Shown piece by piece: positions 12,921 through 42,008 of a DNA stretch of 64,000 nucleotides. Each line of letters begins with the position of its first letter. Position 1 is the stretch's first letter. Made by a program: the position numbers and the translations under genes. Below the pieces are notes generated by a model, which was not told the origin of the DNA, made no database searches, and saw only the letters and a list, made by a program, of their open reading frames with translations. Source of the stretch: an uncultured Bacilli bacterium (GTDB taxonomy: Bacteria; Bacillota_I; Bacilli_A; RF39; UBA660); assembly GCA_947632415.1 (NCBI GenBank), contig CANRPB010000001.1, positions 19,549-83,548 on the forward strand, written 5' to 3'.

Positions 12921-13872
12921 CGTAATATGCTTTTGGATGGTCCCAATTTCCTGTCTGATAATGGTATGATAATTCTGTTAATGTATTGATAATAAGGTCT
13001 TTGCGACTATCTAACTCAATTTCATTAAACATGTTAAATACTCTCACTTCATAGCTATCATTCGTTTGAATTGCAACTATATATGCTTCGCAATCATAAT
13101 CTGATATATCTATACCTAAGTCAGTCATATACCAAGTAATTGCGAGCAAGTAATAACATATCTGCCGATAGTAATCAAACTCTTCAACAGAATGCTTAAA
13201 GTTATATACGTCACTGGTTGTCTTTAAGTCAATCAGTGTTATTTTTTTATTTATATGGTCGAATATACATCTATCAAGTAATGACTTACACGGTGCTATC
13301 CAATTATTTACTTTAAATTTCCAGTTAATGTGGAATTCATTATGAGATTCCACTCCAGGTATATCTGTTAGCAATTCCTTTGCTTTCTTATGGTTATATA
13401 TATTATCCTTAATAGTATTTAATATATTCAAATCGGCAAAGCTAATTGCTTTTCTATTCTCTTTGTTATGTTTTAAAGCTTCTATATAGTCAGCATACTT
13501 CTCACATAGCTCTGTCGCTTCTTTTAAGGCGATTTCAGACGTTTTCTGGTTACTATATGAACTACGGTATGCCTGAAGCTTTTTCGTGTCTTCTATGAGC
13601 TCTAATGAGCTCGCATAAGCTTCACAGAAATCCTTTTGTTGTTTTACTTTAGGTACTTCATAATCAAGTATAATATAATCATGCCAGAATTCATCTGGTT
13701 GCAGTATATACTCATGTATCATAGTACCTCGTTCAAGTTGAGGTAGTTTTAATCCTTCCTCTTTCCCGTCTATCATATCCTTATAATACCGTGGTCCTTT
13801 CTTTAAGAACCACCCGATTGCTGAGTTTGATATTCGCGTGTTATCTTCATAATACGGAATCTCTATTTTCAT
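12895..13872 (-). CDS. PD-(D/E)XK (RecB/Cas4-like) exonuclease
   Basis: Motifs ERGTMIHEY, DHINKKITLIDLKTT (D...DxK) and YYRQICYY (QxxxY). 325 aa. TGA stop. Confidence 0.7.
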   Translation of the reverse strand: MKIEIPYYEDNTRISNSAIGWFLKKGPRYYKDMIDGKEEGLKLPQLERGTMIHEYILQPDEFWHDYIILDYEVPKVKQQKDFCEAYASSLELIEDTKKLQAYRSSYSNQKTSEIALKEATELCEKYADYIEALKHNKENRKAISFADLNILNTIKDNIYNHKKAKELLTDIPGVESHNEFHINWKFKVNNWIAPCKSLLDRCIFDHINKKITLIDLKTTSDVYNFKHSVEEFDYYRQICYYLLAITWYMTDLGIDISDYDCEAYIVAIQTNDSYEVRVFNMFNEIELDSRKDLIINTLTELSYHYQTGNWDHPKAYYDGDGTEEI

Positions 13873-24974: not shown

Positions 24975-27116
24975 ATAATTGTTCCTTTTTGAGTCCGTAC
25001 TTGATATACCAATACGAACAAGTTATACACTATGTTAATAATCTCCTCACTGTTCGGTCATTTACTGGTTACTCAATTATGGAGTAAGTGAATTCAATCA
25101 CATAACCTACTAAGTTTCTATGCATGATAATAAACTGTTAGAGTAATTTGAAAATATCTACTGATAAATTCTTTGATAATAGTTTGTTAATATAATTTTA
25201 TCGTCCCGTTTCGACGGTTAAGATTCAATTTTTTCGATGCTTAACGCACCCCTCACCGTAATCTCATATCGCGATTAGATGCAATATGAAAAACTAAGTC
25301 AATGGCATCTTTTCAGCCTATTAGTGTTTCCGGGTATTACGACAATCTACGCGATTGAAGGTCGTTTATCTAACGTTACTAAACTCACAAGCTCATTGCA
25401 TATAGCATGACCCACTTGTACCATTTCCAGGATTTCTTTGTTTATACTGCACGAACATTAGGATTTCCACCTATCATCGTTCCCTTGTTTGCTCATGGAA
25501 TAATTTTCGACATGAGTGTACTATTAACCATATAGAGACAGTATATGAATTGACACAGGATGCTAACGAATCAGCGTTCTCTCACATCAGTAGTTGCGGC
25601 TACTAACTTTACGAGTGTCTTAACGGTCAGCAATGTCGGTTGGCAGTCGGGGTGGCTCGTACTCCTTAACTTCTATCTTACAACAATAGTTTGAAATCTC
25701 TGTACTACCATTGGACTTCCCATTTATTAATGATTAACAATCATGACACGCTTTGGAGTCGTGGCGGGTCAATTACTAGCCAAAACAACTTCTTAATCTT
25801 GTATTACATCTAATACCCAGTAAGTTATTGTACTCGATTTTTATTTTGTACGATGGTCCTTATCCAAAATCCTGGAATGGACTAGTCTAATTTCCAAAGG
25901 TATTTACATATCTTGAAATACTTAAGCTCTGCTTGTTTTTAAAGGAGTTTTCAAAGCATCTCCTAAATTCATTTTTACTACGTAATAACACTTGCTAAAG
26001 GTGTTCGCTTCTAAATTCAGGGTTAAAGCGCCCTCATAATCGCATTTTAGGCTTTTATTGTTTTTGCCTCGTCATTTCTCATTGTATTATACTCATCTAC
26101 ACGACTAAACTCATGAGTCACCTTAGACTTGAAAGACGGTATCAATCTCATATACCTCATCCCTTATACGTAAGTTCTTTTGCAGCACACTAGTTACGGT
26201 AATGCACAGGATTGGCTCCTGCTCCACGATAATCAGTCGTATTTCTACGGATCATTGCGTTTCCAGCTTTCATATCCTTACTTTGTATAAGTATGTACCA
26301 TAACACGGTTATCCTTACATTAGTATCAGTAATTTCCTCCCTTCATATATGCAAGTTCCAACATCCACAATTGCATGTTGCATCACAGCTGATGTGCATA
26401 GAACACTAGAGTTAGCCTATTTTCCTATCTGGACGTATAGTTGACGCTTTTGTTGACCGATTTTGGAGACCGGTTGTGCCTGTAATGGGCAGTATTTGGT
26501 ATGTTTCGGCTTCTCTTTCCAAAGGATTAGCCCAGGAACCGGATTGTCCCTGTTTCAGCATCGTGTTCATACTCCTGTTTGATTCTGCTTTTGATAAACT
26601 AATAACGAGTATAAGGATTTCGTTCCTATTTTGGAGATTGTGGATATTGTTACTAAGTAGTTTTATTTGTTTATTCTACTAACTATATCTCTCCGATTTG
26701 AATTAATTTATGACTAGGGTATCTTCTTGTAGCTCCTAAATCAAGGGTTCTTCACATTTAATATCGCCAGCCGGTTCTCATACTATTTGTGTGGGCTATT
26801 CACCCTCTCCCACTTTCCCTACCTTTTTCACCAGTATGGGCTATTATCCTACCTTTTGAGTATCTCACCGTTGTTGCGGCTATGGAGCATCTCATAACTA
26901 CTCCTGACATATTCTCGGATTCTGTATCTTTCGGGCTATAACTAATGAGTTAAACTCCCTGACGGGCGCGACCAGTACTATTGTGTACTTTACCGCATGA
27001 CTTCCCCGGAGTGATTTACGCTACAGTTTTACTCCTCTCGTACTATGATATAATTATAGATTTTTAAAGTGGTTATTATCATTAACTATTTACCACTAGG
27101 CATTTCTCGTCTGCCA
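24975..27116 (-). other. 2.1-kb ORF-free region. Candidate large structured non-coding RNA or other non-coding element. Strand is inferred from skew and neighbours.
   Basis: Only one ORF of 60 aa or more in six frames (26476..26682, low complexity). All three - frames near 27060 hit TAA. 26761-26880 counts A19 C37 G20 T44 (47.5% GC, 67.5% pyrimidine on +), versus 19/60 GC in the adjacent ORF (27121-27180). Confidence 0.4.
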
Positions 27117-29876: not shown

Positions 29877-30437
29877 TTAGTTTAACAATTGTTTTAATCT
29901 CTCTCGCGCATTATTTAAACGCGCTTTAACTTGTGATTCTGTAATCCCAAGTTTATCACCTATCTCTTTATAAGATAGATTTTCAGTAGTACGTAACTCT
30001 ATTATAGTCCTATAATGAGGTCTAAGCATTTTTAATGCTTCAGTTAATCGTGAATTAGTTTCATGACCAATATATATTTCTTCAGGTGAATCGTCGGCCG
30101 AACTCCTCACTTGATAGAAATTTTCTTCATCATCTAATTCATAATCATACTTTTCCTTTTTAGTTCTACGAATATAGTCTATACTACTGTTTATAGCTAT
30201 TGTTTTTAACCACATTTCAAATGAAATATGATATGTGTACGTAGCTAATTTAAAATAGGCTTTAGTAAAAGTCACTGATACTAAATCATCAGTTACGTCT
30301 TTATTTCTCACTATGTCATATATGACATTATGAATGACGTGTACGTATTTATTATAAAGCATAGTGAAGGCATTCTGGTCGCCTTCTTTAGCCTTGTTGA
30401 TGAAGACTAAGAGCTGTTGTTTCTCTTCATCTGTCAT
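29877..30437 (-). CDS. ECF-type sigma-70 family RNA polymerase sigma factor
   Basis: Region 2: DLVSVTFTKAY...FEMWLKTIAINSSIDYIRR. Region 4 HTH: LSYKEIGDKLGITESQVKARLNNARERLK. Start taken at MTDEEK (30437), not the track start 30530. Confidence 0.85.
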   Translation of the reverse strand: MTDEEKQQLLVFINKAKEGDQNAFTMLYNKYVHVIHNVIYDIVRNKDVTDDLVSVTFTKAYFKLATYTYHISFEMWLKTIAINSSIDYIRRTKKEKYDYELDDEENFYQVRSSADDSPEEIYIGHETNSRLTEALKMLRPHYRTIIELRTTENLSYKEIGDKLGITESQVKARLNNARERLKQLLN

Positions 30438-30484
30438 AATATTAGGCTTGTTAGTGGTTATAACAATAACCAAACTGTTATAAC

Positions 30485-30868
30485 CTAGAATGGTAGCTCT
30501 AAAATGTATCGGTAATAGTATTCGTACCATTCATTCATGAATTTCTTATATATATCCCATATGCATTCCATGAATTCTCTTTTCATGGGTATAGTTAGTA
30601 TTTTCGGTGATGTATTGTTGATTAGTCCACAGACGATACGTATACGCACGTCTAATGTAACTCTGTGGTCTTTACCTATTCTCTGTAATATCATGTTATC
30701 AAAGAAGTAGATTATATGAGCAACATGTTTATACGATCCAAATGGTTTCTTTTTAATTTCTCTATTTTGAATACGTATAAAAGTGTACCATTCAGGACGC
30801 CAATTAAAATCACTATATTTAGCGCCCCAAACAGTATATATATGATTTGTTAAACTATGTATTACCAT
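30485..30868 (-). CDS. Hypothetical protein
   Basis: 127-aa ORF. TAG stop (cta 30485-30487). Confidence 0.55.
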   Translation of the reverse strand: MVIHSLTNHIYTVWGAKYSDFNWRPEWYTFIRIQNREIKKKPFGSYKHVAHIIYFFDNMILQRIGKDHRVTLDVRIRIVCGLINNTSPKILTIPMKREFMECIWDIYKKFMNEWYEYYYRYILELPF

Positions 30869-31770: not shown

Positions 31771-31799
31771 AATTTAATTGATTTAAATTGTTAATAATG

Positions 31800-31873
31800 T
31801 AGTGAGTAGGAGATTCGAACTCCTTATCTCTTGGTAAAATCCAAGGCTTCACTCCACGCAAAGCTTACTCACT
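31800..31873 (-). tRNA. tRNA-like cloverleaf with a 6-nt anticodon loop (AUUUUA). Isotype undetermined.
   Basis: - strand: AGTGAGT AA GCTT TGCGTGGAGTG AAGC CTTGG ATTTTA CCAAG AGATA AGGAG TTCGAAT CTCCT ACTCACT A. There is no position-26 nucleotide, and the loop is one nt short. Confidence 0.45.
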
Positions 31874-32100
31874 AATCCATCAAGTTCTAACATTTTACAG
31901 GGTCGAGAGCTTGCAACAACACCAAACCTATTTATTACTCGCGGGGATACGACGAGGCTCACCTCTGTTGCTAGACGGAGCTACCCCAGACTTTACTTAC
32001 GCTACTAAGCGGGTATAGTCAGTAACATAACTTGTATTGCCAGTTATTCGCATTATTGACCTATTCTATTTCACATTGTCGCCGTCAAATCCATTTTACC

Positions 32101-32214
32101 CCCGTAGAATGCGTTTTAAGGCTATTTTAAGGCGATTCTAGACACTTTTGAGGTTGACTGGATGATTTATATCAATTTGCATCTAAAATGTCTTAAAATG
32201 GCTTAAAACGCTTA
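32101..32214. repeat. Copy A of the three-copy element. It contains an internal inverted repeat.
   Basis: GCGTTTTAAG (32111-32120) is the reverse complement of CTTAAAACGC (32202-32211). 32120-32154 aligns to 37429-37462 with few mismatches. Confidence 0.6.
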
Positions 32215-32740
32215 ATTATGAAAAATTTAATTAGAATAGTGGAGGTAGAGATCTCCGACAATCTCGTCCGTACGACTGCTCCATAGACCTAACAGTCAAT
32301 TGTGGATATGTAGCCGACCAAAGCTACATACCCTATGGTCTTGTAAATGGTTAGTTCACTATATACTGATCTTGATGATATACGAATGATGACAGCTTTT
32401 ATCCTATACACTGTGATTCGAAGATTCACATCATTCAGTCTATGCTTGATACCACGACTAAAGCTTTTCTCTATTTCTAGAGGACAATCTTATTGTCGCG
32501 ATCTCAGACTTATGATCAGTAGTTCATTGTGGTCCCTCATAACTGATTCAAAGATACTGTATGAGACCTGTTAATTCAGGTCTGTAATGCGACTCAGGCC
32601 CTGTGCGCAATGCAACTTCCGACTCACGCATTAAAGTTATTGATTCAAAGATTCTAAACTTGGAACTTCTTTTTTTATGAAAGTCACTTCAGTGACTTGA
32701 GTAAATAAGCCACGCTAGTGGACTTTTATTTTTAATCGAA

Positions 32741-33211: not shown

Positions 33212-33544
33212 TTTGATTAAGCTTTAATTGATTTAACAATAATTTATTTAACACTCTGTTAGTACCAAATTAAAAGACCTACCCTATTTATTTGTATTGC
33301 TTATTCATAGGAAACCCATTTCCTTCTTTCATAAACTGTTTATAAACAGGTTGACCGTTGTATAGTCCATTGTACTCTTGCATATAGCTTCCATTAGGGT
33401 TCTGGTTATTTGTAGGTCTTTATGTTGATTGGATTCACCACATTATTAAGTTTTAGTTAATAATATTATATAGTTTGGGTAGATACTCTGGCGGAATATC
33501 TACCTCTAACTATCATAGCAACAATAATGAGTATCACCTCAATA

Positions 33545-34615: not shown

Positions 34616-34968
34616 AATTTGATATTATTTGATTAACGGCGTGTGCAAGAGCATTTTGCACAATTTTACATTTGTTTCAGAATAAGTACTAGTAATGCTC
34701 ACTAGCGTTAGTGTAACAATAAACACCATAAAACACATTTACTTTAGTTCTTGATACTCACTAATTACGAATAGCAGGTATAGTAATCAGCTATACCTTA
34801 TCACGGCATGATTTTAACGCCTGCACTAATACTTATCTAAAAGGCTAGCACTTTTGATAAGATATGAGCCCCACATGTTTGTTACTGATTCTCACAGTGA
34901 AAGCGTGTATACTATTCTCACGAACCATATACACCATACGTAATTATGAACAAAAGCATTATTAAAGC

Positions 34969-36819: not shown

Positions 36820-37257
36820 TTATTCAGCCTCGCCCATTCTTTGCAGAAAATCTGCTCTGTCGATAAAATCGGCAAAGCAGCTGGTCTGCCGTGCAAACGC
36901 CAGTTGTCCAGCGTCTATTTTTACGGCGTTGTCGTAAAAATATGTTGCACTACGCGTAGCGTCTGCATACACATCTGACTCGGAACGAGACAGACCTTGT
37001 ATCGTACGGTACGTACGAAGTGTACCGTTTCTGTCCAACTGGACAGGAACAATTTGTGCTGACCATTTGGTCAATTGCAACTGATCGCCTTCAGCAATCT
37101 CTCCGTCTCTGTAAAAGAGACGTGAAATCTCTGTGACGCCAGTCTCGAGATTCTTGAATCTGGCCATGAAGCCAGTTTTACGTTCAGTCTCAGTAAGTTC
37201 TACGCACTCAGCTGATATTGTCTCTCTCTTGAGAGACCAGAAAATGTCTTTAGCCAT
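36820..37257 (-). CDS. Orphan protein on a GC-rich island
   Basis: Start taken at MAKDIFW (ATG 37257). The track start at 37365 is TTG. 36841-36900 is 30/60 GC, versus about one third in the flanks. Confidence 0.6.
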   Translation of the reverse strand: MAKDIFWSLKRETISAECVELTETERKTGFMARFKNLETGVTEISRLFYRDGEIAEGDQLQLTKWSAQIVPVQLDRNGTLRTYRTIQGLSRSESDVYADATRSATYFYDNAVKIDAGQLAFARQTSCFADFIDRADFLQRMGEAE

Positions 37258-37420
37258 GATAAAGCAGTTTTGATAACACAACACGAGGCGGGGGTCCTTC
37301 CCTCGCGAAGTGGGTCGGGGGCGTTTGATGTGATAATTCCACGCATTCACTTTTATACCAATCAAAAAATTTTTCAGAAATTTTTAAAATCCAGTCTAGT
37401 ATATGATAACCTGTTAGATG

Positions 37421-37524
37421 CCCATAGAGGCTATTTTAAAGCGATTTAAGACACTTTTAGGTACTGAGTAGTATAAGTGTAAGGTTGAATATAGATAATG
37501 GCTTAGAAAGCCTTAAAATGAGTC
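37421..37524. repeat. Copy B of the three-copy element, in the divergent intergenic region
   Basis: CCCATAGAGGCTATTTTAAAGCGATTTAAGACACTTTTAGGT, then AATGGCTTAGAAAGCCTTAAAATG. Matches copy A block for block. Confidence 0.6.
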
Positions 37525-37768
37525 AGCTTGGGGGAGAGAATGCTTTTATACACTAAAACCTTCGGTTTTAAATAAGAGGGGGTTCTCTTCTTTCTTTTTA
37601 TTTATTTTTCTTTCTTTAGGAAGTAGATTCTAAAGGAGAAACCCTTTCTTTCTTGTTCTTTCTTTTTCTTTCTTCTCTTGTAGTATTGACAGTTAAAATT
37701 TTATAATAGCAACTACAACTAAATGCGCTATTACGCGTTATATACCACACAATACCCAATTAAGTGAA

Positions 37769-37954
37769 ATGAGACGAATAGTAAAACCAGTAGTTTACAC
37801 CGGTAAACTAATTGAATACGAAGGTAAACAATACAGGTTATACCCTGAGAGAAGTATCTGTGGTTGCAATGGTTGTGACTTACTTGGTAAACAAAGTTGT
37901 GTAGCTGAATTGACTAAATACTGCACACAAGGTTATATCTTAAAGAAAGTATGA
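37769..37954 (+). CDS. Small Cys-rich protein, paralog 1 (no TAG)
   Basis: GKQYRLYPERSICGCNGCDLLGKQSC...KYC. TGA stop. Confidence 0.6.
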   Translation: MRRIVKPVVYTGKLIEYEGKQYRLYPERSICGCNGCDLLGKQSCVAELTKYCTQGYILKKV

Positions 37955-38163
37955 TGTTACATGACCCTGAACTAGCAGAGATTATCAAAAACCATTAGCC
38001 AGTCGAAATTGCAGGTAAACAGTACTACATTGAACCAAATCGTAGTGGTTCCTGTGATGGTTGCGCTTTTGAAGGCAAAAGTAAATGCCCATAGCGAGCA
38101 GTCACGTATTGTTGCTCAAATGGTGGAAATATATTAATTGCAGTTGATAATGGATAGAAATAA
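37951..38163 (+). CDS. Small Cys-rich protein, paralog 2 (three in-frame TAG)
   Basis: ATGA overlap with paralog 1. GKQYYIEPNRSGSCDGCAFEGKSKC...YCC. Reads through 3 TAG to TAA 38161-38163. Confidence 0.55.
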
Positions 38164-38811: not shown

Positions 38812-39219
38812 ATGGAATACAGAGTAATTAAAGAGTTCGGTTCAGCAAAGAAGGGTGACGTATTGGAAAGTGATAACTCCGGTTTTGTGTCGTTCGATGT
38901 AACTGAAAAAAGCGGTAGAAGTGAGTACACTAGGGCAATGACACTTGATGTGGATACTGCTGAATGCATGGTTGAAGATGGTTATCTTGAAAGAGTTACA
39001 GACGAATGTTGCTGTGAGGATTGCACTTGCAAGAAGATTGAAGACACAGTAGAACTGATCGATACCTTGATTGAACAGTACGACAAAGATCACAAAGATA
39101 CACTGGAAAAGGCTGAAAAAGGTGAGATACCGCCTTGTGTTAAAGTTGAAGCTGAGACCGTGTACTATAACTTAAATAAAGTACTCAACAAGATTAAAAA
39201 CGAGTTACTAGATGAATAA
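38812..39219 (+). CDS. Hypothetical Cys-rich acidic protein
   Basis: 135-aa ORF with DECCCEDCTC. Confidence 0.6.
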   Translation: MEYRVIKEFGSAKKGDVLESDNSGFVSFDVTEKSGRSEYTRAMTLDVDTAECMVEDGYLERVTDECCCEDCTCKKIEDTVELIDTLIEQYDKDHKDTLEKAEKGEIPPCVKVEAETVYYNLNKVLNKIKNELLDE

Positions 39220-41930: not shown

Positions 41931-42008
41931 TTCCGCTTGATGTATGATTGCTTAGCATAATTCCCTCTAAAGGAATAGGACCTGGAGCAGAACCGGGAGC
42001 GGGGACCA
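41931..42008 (+). tRNA. Candidate amber-suppressor tRNA (anticodon CTA) with a non-canonical T-loop and an encoded CCA
   Basis: TTCCGCT TG ATGT ATGATTGCTTA GCAT A ATTCC CTCTAAA GGAAT AGGA CCTGG AGCAGAA CCGGG AGCGGGG A CCA. All four stems pair (some G-U). U33 and A37 flank CTA. The T-loop lacks TTC. Confidence 0.45.

Follow-up and report, generated by a model that had tools for sequence, protein, structure and literature searches.

A palindromic, promoter-like cassette in the spacer of a split tmRNA gene and at two further intergenic sites of a Suoliviridae phage

Correia elements of Neisseria and PeSL repeats of T4-like phages are ~100-nt intergenic palindromes with conserved inverted ends and a variable centre, which can supply promoters, fold when transcribed, and serve as recombination points between gene modules. 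In parC of plasmid R1, 11-bp iterons flank a promoter core and are bound by the ribbon-helix-helix protein ParR. Promoters are also carried by (i) the class I/II intergenic repeats of halovirus HF2 (PMC8707807) and (ii) a tripartite middle/late promoter motif in the crAss-like phage phi14:2 and its relatives (bioRxiv 10.1101/2020.03.07.982082). Two-piece transfer-messenger RNAs (tmRNAs) form a further relevant system: their precursors must shed a spacer, and one published permuted tmRNA is reported to have a repetitive element in its intervening sequence (PMC11915505). The present analysis concerns a ~100-nt palindromic element of a 64,000-nt stretch of phage DNA (hereafter the window), where it occurs as copy A (32101-32214), inside a split tmRNA gene, and copy B (37421-37524), between two divergent gene modules; a further copy, E3, lies outside the window. 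The element appears to be a cassette that regulates in cis at the level of DNA, most likely a promoter flanked by operator sites, a reading to which we give about an even chance.

The cassette resembles the HF2 and phi14:2 promoter repeats in being a short, multi-block, gene-oriented intergenic motif that is sometimes found upstream of tRNA genes. It differs from them in its palindromic two-arm structure and in having three non-coding copies, the phi14:2 motif being compared by description alone. Unlike Correia and PeSL repeats, the cassette is of very low copy number, shows no target duplication and no full-length conservation, is accompanied by no transposase, and has one orthologous copy. 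As in parC, its repeats are phased at 11 bp around a ~40-50 bp core that would hold the promoter; unlike in parC, the two repeat sets are mutually inverted, and the phage has no partition genes.

Anatomy and copies of the cassette

The window corresponds to C1:19549-83548, where C1 is a 98,653-bp contig within a 1.39-Mb assembly. The first and last 77 nt of C1 are identical, which indicates a complete, circularly assembled genome. Its nucleotide matches, Suoliviridae crAss-like phages that include cr53_1, cr52_1, cr60_1, cr4_1, and cr56_1, identify the window as a crAss-like (Suoliviridae) phage. A minus-strand gene module from ~12 kb to 37.3 kb holds an exonuclease, a primase, and an ECF sigma factor, while the genes right of 37.8 kb are on the plus strand and many of them require TAG to be decoded as an amino acid.

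In every instance of the cassette, an AT-rich core of ~45-55 nt is enclosed by two inverted arms. Each arm is made of two or three helically phased units of ~11 nt (GCnTTTTAAG), and the gene-proximal arm reads, in gene sense, AAAGTG-N12-(C/T)TTAAAAT-N5-7-TA(Y)GG. Cassette A has one 11-nt unit more than cassette B. The parts of both are as follows.

32111-32211, minus strand: cassette A (nhmmer E 3.7e-5 for the proximal arm on the minus strand, E 0.056 for the opposite arm on the plus strand)
32111-32149, minus strand: proximal arm of cassette A, with units GCGTTTTAAG, GCTATTTTAAG, and GCGATTCTAG-ACAC; Box 1 is 32119-32149
32150-32180: AT-rich core of cassette A
32181-32211: distal arm of cassette A
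37428-37519, minus strand: cassette B (nhmmer E 2e-7 on the minus strand, E 0.29 for the opposite arm on the plus strand)
37428-37458: arm of cassette B on the side of the minus-strand genes (Box 1); TCTATGGG (37428-37421) comes next in minus sense
37497-37519: arm of cassette B that faces the plus-strand genes

The first-pass annotation, made from the letters of the window alone, had described three direct copies of a ~100-nt element with an internal long-range inverted repeat. Its description is partly upheld: A and B are real, and the strings quoted for them stand where it placed them, while the third copy does not survive. In copy A, GCGTTTTAAG (32111-32120) is the perfect complement of CTTAAAACGC (32202-32211), 81 nt away; in copy B, ATTTTAAAGC (37433-37442) pairs with GCCTTAAAAT (37510-37519) with one mismatch. 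The likeness between the two copies, also reported there, amounts to 28/31 identity over a 31-nt block (32119-32149 versus 37428-37458). A gapped local alignment of A and B over ~95 nt scores 55, compared with 21.2 +/- 2.3 and a maximum of 28 in 300 shuffles, and A as query recovers B at E 6.8e-6 across the whole 1.39-Mb assembly. By these alignments, A and B are true paralogs.

The proposed third copy, ~17 kb off, is coding sequence in a DNA primase gene.

15560-15656: copy C of the first-pass annotation, not a real copy; conserved DNA primase coding sequence, in which the codons for KRFKR and RKISLK flank the FDRD Toprim motif

This segment lies inside the primase open reading frame (ORF) 15436-16425 on the minus strand (phrog_12622, E 1.5e-35), which aligns with its orthologs end to end, from residue 1 to ~325, with zero insertions. 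Its resemblance to the cassette stems from conserved codons for ..KKRFKR.. and ..RKISLK.. flanking the FDRD motif. The same peptides and codons are found in the primases of cr53_1, cr60_1, and cr114_1, phages that do not have A and B. A match at 13516-13546 was rejected as well, as it falls within the exonuclease ORF, is conserved in orthologs, and involves no insertion.

A profile scan of the phage genome and its relatives, a check that the first-pass annotation had suggested, revealed the genuine third copy, E3, at C1:97545-97647, in inverted orientation, with orthologs in five Suoliviridae genomes. One E3 arm (C1:97607-97635) is matched at nhmmer E 2.9e-8 by a profile built without E3, and the partner arm lies at 97548-97566. 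E3 is upstream of a virion structural protein gene, and its orthologs occupy the same site in cr53_1, cr56_1, cr4_1, cr125_1, and cr115_1, which represent two subfamilies and have ~70% identical flanks. E3 and its orthologs always follow an intrinsic terminator and precede the start codon of the virion structural protein gene by 25-45 nt. AAAGTG and TTAAAAT are invariant among them, and ATTGTA exactly 12 nt before AAAGT is also conserved. E3 is the ancestral copy. Just upstream of it, at C1:97500-97545, an extra GC-rich segment of ~75 nt with CTCGCT repeats is closed by TTTTCC...GGAAAA; this segment is absent from the orthologous region in five relatives.

The phage genome thus has three non-coding copies, A, B, and E3, with nhmmer E values of 4e-5, 2e-7, and 8e-10, respectively, and in each the strong arm is on the strand of the downstream gene or RNA (A minus, B minus, E3 plus). 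Toward the downstream gene, the proximal arm of A reads AAAAGTGTCTAGAATCGCCTTAAAATAGCCTTAAAACGCATTCTAC and then GGGGG, that of B AAAAGTGTCTTAAATCGCTTTAAAATAGCCTCTAT and then GGGC, and that of E3 GAAAGTGGCTTAAAACGCCTTAAAATGCGTTCTA and then GGGC. TTTTAAG is not enriched in the window, with 14 + 13 occurrences compared with 13.6 + 12.2 expected, and clusters at A only.

Copy B stands at the head of the minus-strand module and, as had been stated earlier, within the divergent intergenic region 37258-37769. Its weaker second arm faces the plus-strand module, which fits a divergent control region. The B region gives no blastn match in relatives, and the B-adjacent protein has no relative in IMG/VR. 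Two further features were observed around B. A GC-rich CGAGGCGGGGGTCCTTCCCTCGCGAAGTGGGTCGGGGGCG at 37283-37330, with pseudoknot-like complementarity and no Rfam match, sits in the 162-nt leader between cassette B and the minus-strand ORF 36820-37258. On the other side, where the divergent region leads from cassette B to the first gene on the plus strand, two 29-nt polypyrimidine repeats (TTCTTTCTT...), 58 nt apart, surround a short GGAG-containing stretch (37588-37674).

Copy A in a permuted tmRNA gene

The first-pass annotation overlooked the key context of copy A, which fills the intervening segment of a circularly permuted, two-piece tmRNA gene, as judged from covariance-model matches and synteny, on the opposite (minus) strand. 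The Rfam model tmRNA_permuted (RF04321) matches 31997-32299 on this strand at 34.1 bits (E 4e-4), and cassette A lies precisely within the insert that the model leaves unaligned, where the tRNA-like domain is split into its two halves. The gathering cut-off of RF04321 is 47 bits, so that the window tmRNA stays below it, and ARAGORN calls no tmRNA in the window. The syntenic loci of cr60_1, cr52_1, cr130_1, cr114_1, cr115_1, and cr125_1 are annotated as transfer-messenger RNA. ARAGORN finds permuted tmRNAs in cr60_1 and cr52_1, with the tags GNTSYVMDYTRLAA (followed by one stop) and GNTSYVTDYTRLVA (followed by two stops), and the cr130_1 tmRNA passes the Rfam cut-off at 54.4 bits. In gene order, all on the minus strand, the acceptor piece runs to 32239, the spacer covers 32238-32104, and the coding piece begins at 32103.

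32239-32300, minus strand: core of the tmRNA acceptor piece (ATTGACTGTTAGGTC...T-arm...UACCUCC-A), 76-81% identical to cr60_1, cr52_1, and cr53_1
32104-32238, minus strand: tmRNA intervening segment of 135 nt, of which cassette A occupies ~100 nt
31900-32103, minus strand: tmRNA coding piece with the 5' end GGGGGUAAAAUGGAUUUGACGG and an approximate 3' limit, 80-88% identical to relatives
31799-31873, minus strand: tRNA-like module directly after the coding piece (ARAGORN 'tRNA-???'), with an aberrant anticodon loop

The two pieces are joined by the acceptor stem 5'-GGGGGUA / UACCUCC-3' (G1-C, G2-C, G3-U, G4-C, G5-C, U6-A, A7-U, discriminator A), in which the G3-U70 alanine identity pair can be read directly from the sequence. 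The 3' strand of this stem ends at ~32240, with CUA encoded where CCA is expected, and a conserved hairpin upstream extends the acceptor piece to ~32335. The tag frame, 32041-31997 on the minus strand, encodes GNTSYVTDYTRLVA and a stop, identical to the ARAGORN tag of cr52_1. The T-arm is GAGAU-UGUCGGAG-AUCUC with an 8-nt loop, compared with GAGGG-UUCGACU-CCCUC in relatives, which has the canonical 5-bp stem and 7-nt UUCGAnU loop. At the position of the tRNA-like module, relatives have a tRNA-Leu or a minimal acceptor/T-arm hairpin.

In its acceptor-spacer-coding order, G3-U pair, and ..LVA tag before a stop, the gene is like the two-piece tmRNAs of RF04321, described in Alpha- and Betaproteobacteria and Cyanobacteria (PMC11915505) and auto-annotated in RefSeq Suoliviridae genomes. 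It is unlike them in having an atypical T-loop (UGUCGGAG), no encoded CCA, and a sub-threshold Rfam score of 34 bits, and in being missed by ARAGORN. It also differs in that the spacer holds a promoter-like palindromic cassette with paralogs elsewhere in the genome.

Spacer identity to relatives is just 41-52%, compared with 76-88% for the flanking pieces, and the spacer is therefore not alignable with theirs. Cassette A stops 7 nt short of the mature 5' GGGGG with which the coding piece begins, and its proximal arm finishes with ...TTAAAACGCATTCTAC. The spacers of relatives are highly variable: 61 loci contain 25 different ones, from 24 to ~600 nt long. An A-like spacer was found in 0/80 tmRNA-bearing IMG/VR loci, A- and B-type copies are absent from the close relatives cr60_1, cr52_1, and cr53_1, and the spacers of these three have no paralog in their own genomes. 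In cr56_1, a free-standing endonuclease ORF lies inside the tmRNA intervening segment (L012, 1204-1785, plus strand), and in cr4_1 a group I intron (75 bits) interrupts the acceptor piece in its T-loop and is accompanied by an ORF on the other strand (L011, 1525-1814, minus strand). In the literature, no account was found of Suoliviridae promoters or of the expression of their two-piece tmRNAs.

Promoter, RNA hairpin, or mobile box

The first-pass annotation proposed five roles for the element. Regulator-binding site and promoter-associated element are the best supported, on the grounds that the cassette is intergenic, that its copies are oriented along the local genes, and that E3 is conserved between a terminator and a start codon in six Suoliviridae. 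A small structured RNA, an origin-like element, and a recombination substrate were the others; the last two are possible but unsupported.

The long-range pairing proposed for both copies is borne out by folding for A and not for B. On the minus strand, A folds into a ~28-bp hairpin at -29.3 kcal/mol (z -6.3), and 0/200 shuffles are as good; the plus strand gives z -4.5. These values would suit an RNA-level element, in which the minus-strand hairpin is an RNase III-type processing site that separates the tmRNA pieces at A and trims or stabilises mRNA ends at B and E3. Such a hairpin would stack beside the tmRNA acceptor stem, the single mismatch of B is a G-U wobble on the minus strand and A-C on the plus strand, and two-piece tmRNA precursors have to lose their spacer (PMC11915505). 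Nevertheless, this explanation is quite unlikely. B folds no better than shuffles (z ~-0.5 on both strands), and no compensatory change between arms is seen among nine sequences. The primary sequence of the arms is also kept across unrelated replicons, which a plain helix does not need. In an alignment of the nine sequences, 71.6% of arm cells pair in register, compared with 30-53% when the register is slid; however, column shuffles reach the same pairing in 316/500 cases, and the covariation score is 0.149 compared with a shuffled mean of 0.154. Because shuffles pair equally well, the inverted repeat amounts to one conserved motif in two orientations, as expected of protein sites, rather than a selected helix, and arms that lack compensatory change are best read as a DNA-level promoter/operator cassette. 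Among 20 distinct relatives, the tmRNA spacers have a median z of -1.06, with only 5% below -2. They are not significantly structured, and a hairpin is therefore not a general need of Suoliviridae tmRNA spacers. A known RNA family was looked for in Rfam at E<=5, which returned nothing for A or B except the tmRNA match spanning A. Arms without covariation, a B copy that does not fold, and the missing Rfam family together leave the small structured RNA role unsupported.

From the cassette's sequence we infer promoter activity, a start site, and a binding protein, as follows. TTAAAAT would act as a -10-like element, with transcription predicted to start ~6-8 nt past it, at TA(Y)GG. The TTTTAAG units on both sides may bind a sequence-specific DNA-binding protein, which could be a phage or host regulator or a sigma-associated factor. 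At A, the coding piece, the tRNA-like module, and the downstream genes would then be transcribed from inside the tmRNA gene. Owing to the palindrome, the spacer would also form a ~28-bp hairpin in any precursor made by read-through. In cr6_1, the annotated ATG is 5 nt after TTAAAAT, at the predicted start site, and the mRNA would thus be leaderless; in cr130_1, the cassette is ~35 nt upstream of the entire tmRNA gene. A possible trans-acting factor is encoded by the phage itself, ~1.5 kb downstream of the tmRNA gene.

29877-30530, minus strand: ECF-type sigma factor (Sigma70_r2 3.5e-10, Sigma70_r4_2 1.8e-13, Sigma70_ECF 1.3e-6)

Its candidacy for the cassette is purely inferential. The phage also has a DUF7399 protein (38812-39219), whose counterparts in relatives are annotated as transcriptional regulators.

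Several results weigh against a promoter with operators, among them that its blocks match no known promoter class. A sigma-70 scan for TTGACA/TATAAT 16-18 nt apart gives matches no commoner than in shuffles, and although TTAAAAT is -10-like, there is no -35 hexamer at the right distance. Three other promoter types were rejected: (i) the Bacteroidota consensus TTTG (-33)/TAnnTTTG (-7), with the two parts 19-21 nt apart, is matched by eye at 6-7/8 positions that are not conserved between copies; (ii) the ECF spacing AAC-N16-CGT is not kept, again as read by eye; and (iii) the sigma-54 consensus does not fit. Only three non-coding copies occur in the 98.6-kb genome, and with relatives that have no A or B types, this indicates that the cassette is no general promoter class. 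The extra 11-nt unit of A shifts AAAGTG by one helical turn from the proximal TTAAAAC, which may weaken the promoter. In the HK97-like phages L132-L136, described below, the better-conserved arm points back into the upstream gene. The profile also matches coding sequence twice, at C1:18268 and in a reverse-transcriptase ORF. The reverse-transcriptase ORF (C1:93100-93450, ..FFRYADDMVLL.. with the YADD motif) has its arm-profile match, at E 3.6e-5, on the sense strand, and this may be either an internal site or a chance product of its codons.

The ~30-nt box of the cassette is also found in other replicons. The core was searched with exact-pattern scans and short blastn, and the arm profile was then built from the matches, E3 being left out. 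The box occurs (i) in the HK97-like phage contigs L132, L133, L135, and L136, between an unknown gene and the Terminase_3 large subunit; (ii) in a plasmid with a Rep3 initiator and a NikA/MobC-like gene (L130, L134); (iii) in the Bacteroidota chromosome L137, between mnmG and a Big_5 lipoprotein gene, as a single copy in 3.4 Mb; and (iv) in the Tenacibaculum jumbo phage pT24 and at non-orthologous sites across four Suoliviridae subfamilies. Marginal short-blastn matches are strikingly enriched in Bacteroidota-linked replicons (cr130_1, cr6_1, cr115_1, cr118_1, Tenacibaculum and Parabacteroides phages, rodent-gut microviruses, and a rat-gut plasmid); those inspected show the same 11-nt unit structure. 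The box is not a common host regulatory motif, as 401 Bacteroidota genomes gave 8 matches (<=3 mismatches) compared with 7 for the reversed control, among which the 1-mismatch matches (G001, G188) and the 2-mismatch match (G223) appear real. A dif/Xer site was likewise rejected, because Box 1 consists of direct rather than inverted repeats and is absent from most Bacteroidota genomes. Finding almost the same ~30-nt box in replicons that are unrelated suggests that they share a trans-acting factor or that mobile elements of Bacteroidota exchange modules.

B matches L137, G188, and L132 at 29/31 and its paralog E3 at only 23/31. That A and B are closer to boxes of unrelated replicons than to E3 suggests either horizontal capture or a trans-acting factor in common. 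It would also suit a portable or recombinogenic intergenic palindrome of the miniature inverted-repeat transposable element (MITE), Correia, or T4-like promoter-stem-loop kind, of which A and B are secondary insertions or captures. Promoter activity would then be carried along, and the direct repeats A and B could lose or exchange the 5.3-kb segment between them, which is rich in non-coding RNAs. Occurrences in the Rep3/NikA plasmid, the rat-gut plasmid, a microvirus, pT24, and non-orthologous Suoliviridae sites fit this explanation, as do relatives without A and B and the presence of terminal inverted repeats, with inverted arms of 20-30 nt. The tmRNA spacers of the clade are, moreover, insertion hot spots, as illustrated by the endonuclease ORF of cr56_1 and the group I intron of cr4_1, and a repetitive element has been published from the intervening sequence of one permuted tmRNA (PMC11915505). 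Yet the explanation is on the unlikely side, given that ~30 nt alone are conserved between unrelated contexts, with no full-length element, and that A, B, and E3 show neither a target-site duplication nor a precise empty site, the flanks of relatives being too diverged. A genome holds 1-3 copies (a 3.4-Mb Bacteroidota genome has 1), E3 stably keeps its orthologous site across subfamilies, and there is no associated transposase.

The 11-nt phased repeats that flank an AT-rich core would also be compatible with a replication origin of the iteron type, to which an initiator binds, or with a packaging site recognised by the small terminase subunit. B is at the cumulative GC skew minimum, where transcription diverges; Box 1-like tandem units occur in small plasmids, one with a Rep3 initiator gene; and in the L132-L136 phages the element is just upstream of the large terminase gene. 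GC skew in phages, however, follows transcription, so that the minimum is not independent evidence, and the plasmid box is ~1.9 kb from rep and adjoins the nikA-like gene. A and B are missing from close relatives whose replication and packaging genes are the same, and three dispersed copies, one of them inside a tmRNA gene, would be unusual for either function. An origin or packaging site is accordingly very improbable.

A more far-reaching form of the promoter/operator reading combines several steps. The tmRNA spacer would be an internal promoter, the two pieces would be separate primary transcripts, and transcription initiation rather than RNase P would define where the coding piece begins at its 5' end. 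That promoter would come from a ~30-nt box, a portable regulatory/recombination module with its own binding protein that is passed between phages, plasmids, microviruses, and chromosomes of Bacteroidota. Taken as a whole, this proposal is speculative and probably wrong in at least some part.

Neighbouring features and significance

The 5.3-kb minus-strand segment from A to B is a dense block of non-coding RNAs. It contains a hatchet ribozyme (34806-34904, minus strand, 83 bits), a RAGATH-9 RNA (33272-33432, minus strand, 140 bits), and a RAGATH-20-like motif (32500-32581, minus strand) with a sub-threshold 35 bits, the cr56_1 ortholog of which scores 101.8 bits. Farther into the minus-strand module, 24975-27116 is a 2.1-kb stretch without ORFs on both strands, even with TAG read as Gln. 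On the plus-strand side, 37769-37954 and 37951-38163 encode neighbouring small Cys-rich paralogs (GKQY...C.GC...C). The reading frame of the second contains three TAG codons, in keeping with the recoding of TAG in genes of the plus strand. A tRNA lies farther to the right.

41931-42008: tRNA with anticodon CUA (ARAGORN)

The cassette stands upstream of a structural gene in all genomes examined, and one lineage of Suoliviridae has gained additional copies in the tmRNA spacer and at the start of the replication module. Should this be merely a lineage-specific duplication of an ordinary promoter, the finding is a modest one. If the spacer copy is an active promoter, it would represent an unusual production of a split RNA from two transcription units and would fit the idea that permuted genes arose from tandem duplicates that kept the inter-copy promoter. 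Suoliviridae are abundant gut phages, and the cassette gives a concrete, testable handle on how their transcription is controlled.

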